The notes beneath the pieces were generated by a model. The model saw nothing but the letters and a program-made list of their open reading frames with translations, did not search any database and was not told the origin of the DNA. A program made the position numbers and the translations under genes. Positions 37,832-51,927 of a DNA stretch of 64,000 nucleotides are shown here, piece by piece. The stretch is from Octopus vulgaris (taxonomy: Eukaryota). Within the stretch, counting starts at the first letter, position 1. Every line of letters starts with the position of its first letter. The stretch is taken from the NCBI GenBank assembly GCA_951406725.2, contig OX597818.1, positions 81,654,001 to 81,718,000 of the forward strand. The letters are read 5' to 3'.

Positions 37832-38089
37832 GTTGGCAGGTAGATAGATAGGTATATATTAATATATACATGTATAAGTGTGTGTGTGTTGTCTGCTTGG
37901 CCTAGTGTTTAGAGAATGGCACTCACTATCGGATGGTCATGGTTTCGATCGAGCAAAACACTTCCTTTCACGTTACTCCATTCCCCTCAGCTGTAAATGT
38001 GTAAACCTTGTGACGATGTGGTATTCCGATGAGGTGAGGATTTTGGCCTTCCCGCCTACACAACGGGATAGCACGTTATATATATTGAT

Positions 38090-38313
38090 AGTTATCGCCA
38101 AGCTAACGTGCCAATCCAGGAAAATTAGGGCGAATGATGCCGTTGATTAGCTCCAAGAGGACATCGCCTCTAGCTAGCTATGGGACACGCGAACCCGTGT
38201 CCATTATAACCTCCGAACAGGGGAGATCAGTCACTTCCACTTGTTGGTCTGGCACCCACAGACTAGTTTCGGGGTATTTGCCCCTTATCAATATAGAGCA
38301 GCCGAACCCAGCA

Positions 38314-38318
<5 letters not shown>
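38090..38318 (-). mobile_element. Diverged relative of the 361-bp hammerhead unit
   Basis: Collinear motifs TTAGC.CCA.G...ACATCG...GACAC..GTGTCC..TAACCT...GGGAG, then a hammerhead at the equivalent place. Confidence 0.6.
38251..38300 (-). ncRNA. Minimal type I hammerhead, U3-A8 core variant
   Basis: Minus strand: TCTATA-TTGATAA-GGGG-CAAATA-CCCC-GAAA-CTAG-TC-TGTGGG. Confidence 0.68.
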
Positions 38319-38354
<36 letters not shown>

Positions 38355-38556
38355 CAATAATAATTCTCTAAAAGAGATATAGACAGTAACTGCTCGATAA
38401 CATAAGGGACTAAAGCCATCTGAATATGGCTAGGGACAGGGCAGGGTGGTGGGGGTGTTACTGTTGCATTTAGCCCCAGGCGAACATCGACGTCACCAGA
38501 TAGGCCCGACACCGTCACGGTGTCCTTTAACCTGCAAAGGGAGGTAATTCCCCGAT

Positions 38557-38630
38557 GAAGCGGAAACCACACACGGACCATGGTTTCAAGGTGTATTGCC
38601 TATCGTCGGCGTGTGGTAGGCTTCCGCTTC
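38557..38630 (-). ncRNA. Type I hammerhead ribozyme, copy 1
   Basis: Reverse complement of 39096-39169. Confidence 0.8.
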
Positions 38631-38917
38631 CTCGACGAACACTCACTCTGCAGGATATTCATATATAGATTTTCAAGCAAAATACATTTGCTGATTTCGA
38701 AAATCTGTTCGAAAGCAATAATAATTCTCTAAAAGAGATATAGACAGTAACTGCTCGATAACATAAGGGACTAAAGCCATCTGAATATGGCTAGGGACAG
38801 GGCAGGGTGGTGGGGGTGTTACTGTTGCATTTAGCCCCAGGCGAACATCGACGTCACCAGATAGGCCCGACACCGTCACGGTGTCCTTTAACCTGCAAAG
38901 GGAGGTAATTCCCCGAT

Positions 38918-38991
38918 GAAGCGGAAACCACACACGGACCATGGTTTCAAGGTGTATTGCCTATCGTCGGCGTGTGGTAGGCTTCCGCTTC
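38918..38991 (-). ncRNA. Type I hammerhead ribozyme, copy 2
   Basis: Copy 1 plus 361 bp. Confidence 0.8.
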
Positions 38992-39095
38992 CTCGACGAA
39001 CACTCACTCTGCAGGATATTCATATATAGATTTTCAAGCAAAATACATTTGCTGATTTCGAAAATCTGTTCGAAAGCAATTGAGTGTTCGTCGAG

Positions 39096-39169
39096 GAAGC
39101 GGAAGCCTACCACACGCCGACGATAGGCAATACACCTTGAAACCATGGTCCGTGTGTGGTTTCCGCTTC
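39096..39169 (+). ncRNA. Type I hammerhead ribozyme, copy 3 (predicted cleavage after C39150)
   Basis: GAAGCGGAA..AC-CACACG-CCGACGA-TAGG-CAATACA-CCTT-GAAA-CCATGG-TC-CGTGTG-TGGT-TTCCGCTTC. Confidence 0.8.
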
Positions 39170-39456
39170 ATCGGGGAATTACTTCCCTTTGCAGGTTAAA
39201 GGACACCGTGACGGTGTCGGGCCTATCTGGTGACGTCGATGTTCGCCTGGGGCTAAATGCAACAGTAACACCCCCACCACCCTGCCCTGTCCCTAGCCAT
39301 ATTCAGATGGCTTTAGTCCCTTATGTTATCGAGCAGTTACTGTCTATATCTCTTTTAGAGAATTATTATTGCTTTCGAACAGATTTTCGAAATCAGCAAA
39401 TGTATTTTGCTTGAAAATCTATATATGAATATCCTGCAGAGTGAGTGTTCGTCGAG

Positions 39457-39530
39457 GAAGCGGAAGCCTACCACACGCCGACGATAGGCAATACACCTTG
39501 AAACCATGGTCCGTGTGTGGTTTCCGCTTC
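39457..39530 (+). ncRNA. Type I hammerhead ribozyme, copy 4 (predicted cleavage after C39511)
   Basis: Copy 3 plus 361 bp. Confidence 0.8.
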
Positions 39531-40464
39531 ATCGGGGAATTACCTCCCTTTGCAGGTTAAAGGACACCGTGACGGTGTCGGGCCTATCTGGTGACGTCGA
39601 TGTTCGCCTGGGGCTAAATGCAACAGTAACACCCCCACCACCCTGCCCTGTCCCTAGCCATATTCAGATGGCTTTAGTCCCTTATGTTATATATATATAT
39701 ATATATACAAAGTGCGTGGGAAGTATCTATGCATTATATATTGCTTATATAACTTTTAGTATCACTGAAGTCAAAACAAAAATATATTTTAAACGGCTAA
39801 CACGTTGCTGGCCTTGTGCAAAAATTTGAAACATATATATATATTGATATATTGATAAACATACATAGTAAACTGCTCTTTATCATTTCCGACGATGAGT
39901 ATCTAAGTTATAAGATCAACCAAATTGCTCACTAATTCAATTGTCGTGTAAATGGCTCAGTGTTTTACTATTCTACAAGAATATCAACTTTAATATAATT
40001 TTCTCCAAGAATCAGCGTTACGCAAATTATGACACGACTGGCCGTTTAAATTACAGCTGGCCTCCATCCAAACAGGTTTCTGCACAATTTCAGGTCATCT
40101 GCTTAATTTCATTCGCATTGCTTATATCTACCAGTGGCTATAGATTAAAGAAATAAAAACTAACCAGACATCCATGCAGTAGTTCATCGTTTTCCGAAAT
40201 AGTTTTTTAAAACTACTACGCCATACTTGTTGCCAAATTTGCATTCATATCCACATTCAAACCCATCCGCAAACACGATCAAAACACAACCATATATGCA
40301 CATGTATATGTATGTATGTATGTGTGTATGTATGTCTGTATCTATCTAGCTAGCTATCTTTCCATATACCTGTATATATATATGTATGCATGTATGTATA
40401 TATCTATATATATGTATGTATGCATGTATGTGTATATGTATACATATGTATGTATATATATATG

Positions 40465-51595: not shown

Positions 51596-51927
51596 TAGCC
51601 GCACGACATCGTGAAGTATATTTGCCACCTAAATGTGACTGATCCTTAAGGGTCAATGCTACTGTAGTTTGTAACCCCAGGATGACATCTCCCCCAGCTG
51701 GCTATTGACACACTATCTGTAATCTATCAGCATTCGCAAAGGGAAGTCATTGTTCCCATCTTCAGCCTGATGTGATACACACGGACCCGAGATTTTAGGG
51801 CACAGATAGTGTGTCAATAGCCAGCTTGAGGAGATGTCATCCCGAGGTTAAAAGCTACAGTTGCATCGACCCTTAAGGGTTAGCCACATTTAGGTGGCAA
51901 ATATACTTCACGATGACGTGCGGCTAC
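51596..51927. mobile_element. Inverted-repeat element with ~125-bp arms, related to the 361-bp unit family
   Basis: GTAGCCGCACG.CATCGTGAAGTATATTTGCCACCTAAATGTG... is mirrored by ...CACATTTAGGTGGCAAATATACTTCACGATGACGTGCGGCTAC. Confidence 0.8.

Follow-up and report, generated by a model that had tools for sequence, protein, structure and literature searches.

Metazoan non-LTR retrozymes are tandem arrays of 170–400-nt units that lack an ORF and carry one type I hammerhead ribozyme per unit; their GC content is below 50%, the circular monomer is well paired, and target duplications exceed 4 bp (PMC7229834). The 350–390-bp repeats of mussels and Rtz_353 of the axolotl belong to this group, and the same report proposed Penelope-like elements (PLEs) as the mobilisers and RNA circles as the templates. 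Vertebrate non-LTR retrozymes, tandem hammerhead units of ~300–360 bp for which PLE mobilisation was likewise proposed, co-occur with Neptune and Poseidon PLEs; the evidence for that link is co-occurrence and pseudo-LTR (pLTR) similarity in 35 genomes, among which the available text lists no mollusc class (bioRxiv 10.64898/2026.07.22.740005). PLE insertions have hallmarks of their own, namely inverted 5'-truncated copies, a one-sided tail of 30–40 bp and a bias towards microsatellites (bioRxiv 10.1101/2021.04.23.441226). EN+ Neptune and Nematis PLEs show partial tandems, an inverted copy, a one-sided tail, a microsatellite target and a palindromic helix III (PMC4209133; bioRxiv 10.1101/2021.04.23.441226), and circular templates were proposed in 2014 for PLE reverse transcription of more than one unit (PMC4209133). 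The non-autonomous PLEs of Chlamys (MRC1) generally match autonomous 3' sequence and are mostly devoid of hammerheads (bioRxiv 10.1101/2021.04.23.441226).

We analysed a 64,000-nt stretch of Octopus vulgaris DNA (contig OX597818.1; hereafter the window) that contains a hammerhead-bearing repeat, family F1. Judged by its sequence, F1 is most likely a PLE-mobilised member of the metazoan non-LTR retrozymes, a kind of element already described (PMC7229834; bioRxiv 10.64898/2026.07.22.740005). It resembles the published metazoan retrozymes in unit size, in its one type I hammerhead per ORF-less tandem unit, in GC content, in the pairing of its circle and in its target duplications, and it resembles the vertebrate retrozymes in being a tandem hammerhead unit of similar length. 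It differs from the former in a U4C substitution in the hammerhead core and in displaying the full PLE footprint of inverted arms, one-sided tail and (TA)n target, and it is known from sequence alone, whereas expression and cleavage have been shown for the published elements (PMC7229834). With the EN+ Neptune and Nematis PLEs it shares each of the five features listed above; unlike them, it has no ORF and a period of 361 nt. Its tail is 44 nt long, compared with the 30–40 stated for PLEs (bioRxiv 10.1101/2021.04.23.441226) and 32–38 in two resident families (B and A, below). Unlike that of the vertebrate retrozymes, the PLE link of F1 rests on insertion anatomy, pLTR similarity not having been found; unlike the Chlamys MRC1 type, F1 carries a hammerhead and has no 3' match among five resident PLE families.

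The locus (38317–39707) consists of two outward-pointing arms inside a (TA)n tract (38317–38352 on the left, 39691–39707 on the right). Unit positions are numbered from window position 39151. The left arm (38353–39080, minus strand) comprises 728 nt or 2.0 units and runs, in the RNA sense, from a 5' end at unit position 218 to a 3' end at 223 (the long end). The right arm (39081–39690, plus strand) comprises 610 nt or 1.7 units, with its 5' end at position 292 touching the left arm and its 3' end at 179 (the short end). The arms meet without a gap and both outer ends enter (TA)n. Positions 38397–39006 are the reverse complement of 39081–39690, forming a 610-nt inverted repeat with four hammerheads, and the unequal 3' ends leave a 44-nt tail (unit positions 180–223; 38353–38396, minus strand) on the left-arm end alone. 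Each arm contains a complete cut-to-cut monomer of 361 nt (39151–39511, plus; 38576–38936, minus). TRF returned a period of 361 with 100% matches across 38353–39080, and position 39183 is the sole mismatch at that period inside 39081–39690. The feature has a GC content of 48.0%, whereas its flanks have 35.5% and 34.0%. Just past the 5' end of an older, truncated copy of a sister family, F2, which has its own hammerhead (38082–38312, minus strand), lies the left (TA)n tract.

The period, the single substitution and the GC contrast all bear out a preliminary description of this DNA, which had recognised a non-coding 361-bp unit in near-identical copies. Those copies are real, and they are arranged as an inverted pair of arms, not as a single tandem array; the description had also overlooked the (TA)n setting and the one-sided tail. 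Stop-to-stop frames within the feature reach ~100 aa at most. ARAGORN reported no tRNA anywhere in the window, a weak test for degenerate heads; with no tRNA-like head seen in that search, an origin from a tRNA-derived SINE was dropped. Upstream of the hammerhead the unit contains a CRE-like TGACGTC (unit positions 81–87; 39231–39237) and a TATA-like run (positions 270–275; 39420–39425), which possibly constitute a putative internal promoter. Similar motifs occur in the 3' region of resident PLE family A.

The plus-strand hammerhead at 39111–39156 consists of stem I CACACG/CGUGUG, core CCGACGA (U4C), a stem II of 3 bp with a U-U mismatch at its base, GAA, and a palindromic stem III, ACCAUGGU; the minimum free energy (MFE) fold contains a stem I extension, GAAGCGGAA/UUCCGCUUC. 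We scanned both strands of the whole window with a descriptor that allowed U4C and C3U/G8A; stem I had to span at least 4 bp, and stem III had to be palindromic. Five matches were found. Four are inside the feature, with predicted cuts after 39150 (39111–39156) and 39511 (39472–39517) on the plus strand and after 38937 (38931–38976) and 38576 (38570–38615) on the minus strand; the fifth is the F2 hammerhead (38261–38291). Both plus-strand cuts and the stem I extension had been predicted in the preliminary description, which spelled out the motif correctly and missed the U-U mismatch. Its palindromic stem III is present as well; a more fitting description than a minimal motif lacking helix III is a helix III of 2 bp capped by a palindromic tetraloop, as in axolotl HHR_Amex2, which shares the U-U mismatch at the helix II base (PMC7229834). 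The Rfam comparison that it had suggested came back empty: no family reached its gathering score within the window, and at E≤5 no hammerhead family appeared in 38000–39700, where the only matches were of microRNA and snoRNA type; these stayed below their cut-offs, and the inverted repeat and (TA)n account for them. It is therefore the descriptor and the covariation, not Rfam, that support the ribozyme assignment.

In silico, the 39151–39511 monomer folds into a strongly self-paired circle, with a circular MFE of -119.2 kcal/mol and a z of about -5.5 to -5.9 relative to dinucleotide shuffles. For the 8-nt helix III, a hairpin within one monomer is unfavourable at +2.9 kcal/mol, whereas a duplex is favoured at -11.2 kcal/mol, which is consistent with cleavage as a dimer. 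In a pattern search, 115 of 125 F1 motifs carried the exact core and 4 more differed at position 7 alone. Published data on related ribozymes point to modest activity. U4C considerably reduces activity in vitro, yet is tolerated in vivo by a viroid (PMC3088659); metazoan PLE hammerheads are weak cleavers (PMC4209133); and dimers of predicted Xenopus retrozymes went uncleaved in 8 of 9 cases (bioRxiv 10.64898/2026.07.22.740005). We regard efficient self-cleavage of the U4C/U-U variant as somewhat more probable than its failure. A read-through transcript of the locus could form a 610-bp hairpin that masks the predicted hammerheads.

F1 is a dispersed and young family. A search of the genome assembly (2.8 Gb, 227 contigs) with the unit, a search that the preliminary description had also proposed, gave 212 matches at E≤0.001 among 40 scored of 1116 candidates, on many contigs; full-length matches were 92–100% identical to the unit, nearly all of them 97–100%. 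In a DNA-size sequence run labelled as a second organism, 193 contigs matched the unit (53 of them at ≥99%), and the family therefore extends beyond this assembly. Two further contigs of 391 and 390 nt (monomer plus 30 nt), one from each of two runs whose RNA status is a guess, close the unit cycle and break at positions 179 and 174; since they break at genomic 3' ends, a circle, a tandem copy and DNA would look the same.

We mapped 39 distinct loci (19 after removal of 11 duplicate views, and 20 further loci fetched), which are the best BLAST matches and hence biased towards young, long copies. All 39 are contiguous, pure arrays of a 360–361-bp unit (GC 47–48%). Two inverted arms are present in 32 of the 39, and in 31 of these 32 one 3' end is short and the other long. 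Arm 3' ends fall at position 179 (32/71) or 223 (25/71), together 57 of 71, and (AT)n adjoins 65 of the 71 arm ends. Arm lengths range from 0.3 to 10.9 units, with 54 of 71 exceeding one unit and 27 exceeding two. At the two loci that lie outside (TA)n, the target duplications measure 9 and 12 bp. Inverted arms, a one-sided tail and a (TA)n target identify a PLE-type insertion, and on this anatomy we hold with high confidence that the unit is a non-autonomous, PLE-mobilised hammerhead element.

In none of the 39 loci does the unit join an ORF. A tblastn search with 7 resident PLE proteins matched the flanks of 3 of the 39 loci, none joined to the unit, and no PLE protein matched inside the unit arrays. 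Side by side with these data stand arrays lying in (TA)n at the 3' ends of autonomous PLEs of families C (L155/L172), B (L080) and D (L011). A reading of these as PLE-joined units was rejected, as (TA)n separates them from the PLE 3' ends; they are read as independent nested insertions that share the PLE target.

These junctions bear on the proposal that the unit is the ordinary pLTR of an ORF-bearing PLE and that the arrays are extremely 5'-truncated copies. Hammerheads of this kind do occur in PLE pLTRs, opposite-strand pairs 100–700 bp apart have been attributed to truncated PLEs (PMC4209133), and the autonomous octopus families show the same insertion anatomy. In all 39 loci, however, the sequence upstream of each hammerhead is another 361-nt unit and never an ORF, and arms reach 10.9 units; among resident autonomous elements the repeat period is ~4.3 kb instead of 361 nt; and three families have a closed period of 361–362 nt. 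We consider this proposal very improbable. The preliminary description, which had inferred a retrozyme without an ORF that was active recently and moved by a PLE reverse transcriptase (RT), had named this pLTR proposal as the alternative, and it is contradicted at every mapped locus; the retrozyme reading itself is supported by the youth of the family, by the lack of ORF junctions and by the PLE-type anatomy.

An equally small chance attaches to a satellite or minisatellite that grew from one inserted pLTR by unequal crossing-over or slippage, or to an assembly artefact. Local growth is a route proposed for vertebrate retrozymes (bioRxiv 10.64898/2026.07.22.740005), and it may account for the longest, mosaic array (L061, below). 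Against it, dispersed loci repeat the same fixed, paired 3' ends, the same one-haplotype inverted arms, (TA)n targeting and target duplications, recurring features that neither amplification of DNA in place nor misassembly would generate.

The arms also record something of the template. Their 3' ends lie inside the unit, 179–223 nt beyond the cut, and the cDNA crossed the cut site repeatedly. Inner ends fell within 8 nt of the predicted cut in 2 of 71 cases, against 3.1 expected. Inner ends thus show no excess at the cut, which implies a template with no 5' end there, such as a circle or an uncleaved multimer, and template jumping on cleaved linear monomers was rejected as the main route. At sites covered by at least two copies, 75 variants were fixed within a locus, 13 were partial and 163 occurred in a single copy; mean divergence was 0.8% within loci and 1.6% between loci. 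With a cleaner reference, the 39 loci yielded 14 haplotype strings common to both arms, two or three of which differ by gap placement alone. Copies in one locus nearly always carry one haplotype on both arms: at L172, an 8-piece locus met by chance beside a PLE, 8 variants are present in all or nearly all covering copies of both arms. A variant starts in one unit, and its fixation across several units therefore calls for passage through a single unit that is then multimerised again, as rolling-circle reverse transcription would provide. One haplotype per locus together with unclustered inner ends is compatible with rolling-circle reverse transcription of one monomer. The exception is L061, which has the longest arm (10.9 units) and is a mosaic: it combines haplotypes that elsewhere occupy different loci and changes from one to another within units, and a single circle cannot yield it. 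A few other loci carry partial variants.

These statistics leave one serious competitor, in which F1 is a non-autonomous PLE derivative copied from linear, uncleaved multimers of a few homogeneous master arrays, with a weak or vestigial hammerhead and no circle. With uncleaved templates, too, inner ends would fall at random and arms would extend past one unit, U4C and U-U are expected to slow cleavage (PMC3088659; PMC7229834 on HHR_Amex2), the L061 mosaic fits, and with 40 of 1116 candidates scored, long masters may lie unseen. It would require, for about a dozen nested haplotypes each uniform over a multi-unit array, repeated single-unit bottlenecks or strong concerted evolution, and it sits poorly with a core and helix pairing conserved across families that are just 55–60% identical. 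We judge linear master copying unlikely, while giving it more weight than either of the explanations above. Copying from a monomer, probably circular, is modestly favoured as the route by which the unit multiplies, and the locus as a whole probably arose when a young non-LTR retrozyme, non-autonomous and dependent on a PLE, inserted once, copied via a monomer circle.

Insertion of such a retrozyme could proceed as follows. A locus with at least two hammerheads would be transcribed and cleaved to a 360–361-nt monomer, a step that dimerisation through the palindromic helix III probably helps, and by analogy with other retrozymes a host ligase would circularise the product. A Neptune/Nematis-type PLE RT with a GIY-YIG endonuclease, acting in trans, would then nick (TA)n, as the insertion anatomy strongly implies, and both target strands would prime cDNA at two fixed AU-rich sites of the template, positions 179 and 223, 44 nt apart. 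As the haplotypes and end statistics suggest, the RT would travel around the monomer to a varying extent, and joining of the truncated ends of the two cDNAs would give two diverging arms with the tail on one side. For F1 we infer, rather than observe, cleavage, circularisation and the identity of the mobiliser.

F2, F3 and F4 are older sister families of F1. The F2 copy beside the locus has core UUGAUAA, stem III ACUAGU and a C3U/G8A hammerhead with a predicted cut after 38261. Among 40 scored of 1603 candidates, F2 copies are ~86–89% identical and have a 361-nt period and a ~44-nt tail; F3 is known from partial copies alone. The closed periods of F2 and F4 are 361 and 362 nt, and both align to F1 at 55–60% identity with scores of 177–260, compared with shuffled maxima of 117–124. 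Circular folds gave in silico z-scores of -5.5 (F1), -3.9 (F2) and -6.3 (F4) against 40 shuffles each. Across F1–F4 the core and GUC are kept and all three helices vary yet stay paired, including a change of C3-G8 to U3-A8; two autonomous PLEs also retain the core and a self-complementary helix III with covarying stems. U4C recurs in F4 and in autonomous PLE family B, which has the U-U too. Covarying stems around a kept core fit a hammerhead under selection.

Further sister families (F3, F4 and others) were seen at L207, L208, L209, L211, L116, L200, L021, L091 and L132, with cores CUGAUGA, CCGAUGA and CCGACGA. Searches returned 2839 candidates for F3 and 1920 for F4, and a decayed F3-like relic of the hammerhead clan lies within the window at 51621–51799 (minus strand; nhmmer E 4.8e-07). 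The clan of hammerhead repeats looks large and long-lived.

The same genome contains intact PLEs. Four families with RT and GIY-YIG domains have intact ORFs of 781 (A), 775 (B), 775 (C) and 753 aa (D). Pfam identifies RVT_1 and GIY-YIG in the resident proteins, and a CX2-5CxxC linker precedes the C-terminal GIY-YIG in 5 of 5 RT-endonuclease (RT-EN) proteins, the arrangement expected of the Neptune clade. The resident elements end in (TA)n, with alternative 3' ends 38 nt apart in A and 32 nt apart in B; both families have a hammerhead with a palindromic helix III upstream of the end, and autonomous copies occur in tandem (period ~4270, ~4.3 kb) and inverted. Family B is probably still active: 76 loci encode a 100% identical RT-EN protein (L101–L130, L146–L151), and 30 copies differ by 0–7 nt over 1716 nt. 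In sensitive blastn the unit could not be aligned with the 3' regions of families A–D and E (L051 type), and further PLE families exist; weak blastn matches near PLE 3' regions were separate flanking relics. A resemblance in spacing between family D ends and unit ends, seen by eye, was too weak for use. The footprint thus points to a PLE as the likely mobilising partner, whose identity was not found by sequence among these five families; the autonomous partner may share just conserved tail hairpins with the unit.

Two features of the resident families deserve mention in their own right. In families A and B (L084 1268–4971; L149) an upstream ORF, 479 and 454–469 aa stop to stop and 27–35% identical between the two families, overlaps the RT-EN frame, and in the overlap a run of T precedes an A, a possible -1 frameshift site. 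Young copies of family C (L156, L157 and the L167 3' region) have a hammerhead-like motif with GCAA for GAAA, while two older copies have GAAA; the ribozyme may thus be dispensable in an active PLE.

Coleoids are known for extensive RNA editing. A-to-G changes account for 4 or 5 of the 8 types of locus-fixed substitution but for 7 of the 99 substitutions seen in a single copy (post hoc Fisher p 0.004 or 0.0003, with small n). Two A-to-G sites recur on several haplotype backgrounds, within A-U pairs of the long stem. One speculative reading, to which we give little credence at present, is that a PLE RT-endonuclease performs rolling-circle, double-ended target-primed reverse transcription on the 360-nt circle and that A-to-I edits are copied into DNA, where they define subfamilies. 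The pattern could also come from structure-tolerant (G-U-compatible) selection, from a bias in RT errors or from haplotypes recombining.

In the literature, the F1 family was not found described, although repeat libraries or supplements may hold a prior listing, nor were retrozyme insertions with the full PLE footprint. Titles and abstracts on hammerhead ribozymes in cephalopods held nothing on F1, and the available parts of PMC8967140 and PMC10886601 mention neither the family nor such insertions. The words 'inverted', 'microsatellite', 'rolling' and 'cephalopod' are absent from the main text of PMC7229834, as available.

F1 is a member of an ordinary class of mobile RNA, and host function is not indicated. 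A PLE mobiliser and a circular template have been proposed for retrozymes since 2014–2020, with prior support, in the published texts available, from co-occurrence and pLTR similarity. The youth of F1 leaves the mechanism readable at each insertion, in fixed priming points, diverging arms and a single haplotype. With near-identical intact PLE enzymes of matching footprint in the same genome, a PLE acting on a circle becomes testable with a 360-nt substrate, and the origin of the inverted ends and tails of PLEs, so far unexplained, may be approached through F1 as well. If the reading that includes editing were true, the octopus genome would be a direct record of rolling-circle reverse transcription by PLEs, with RNA edits written into DNA.
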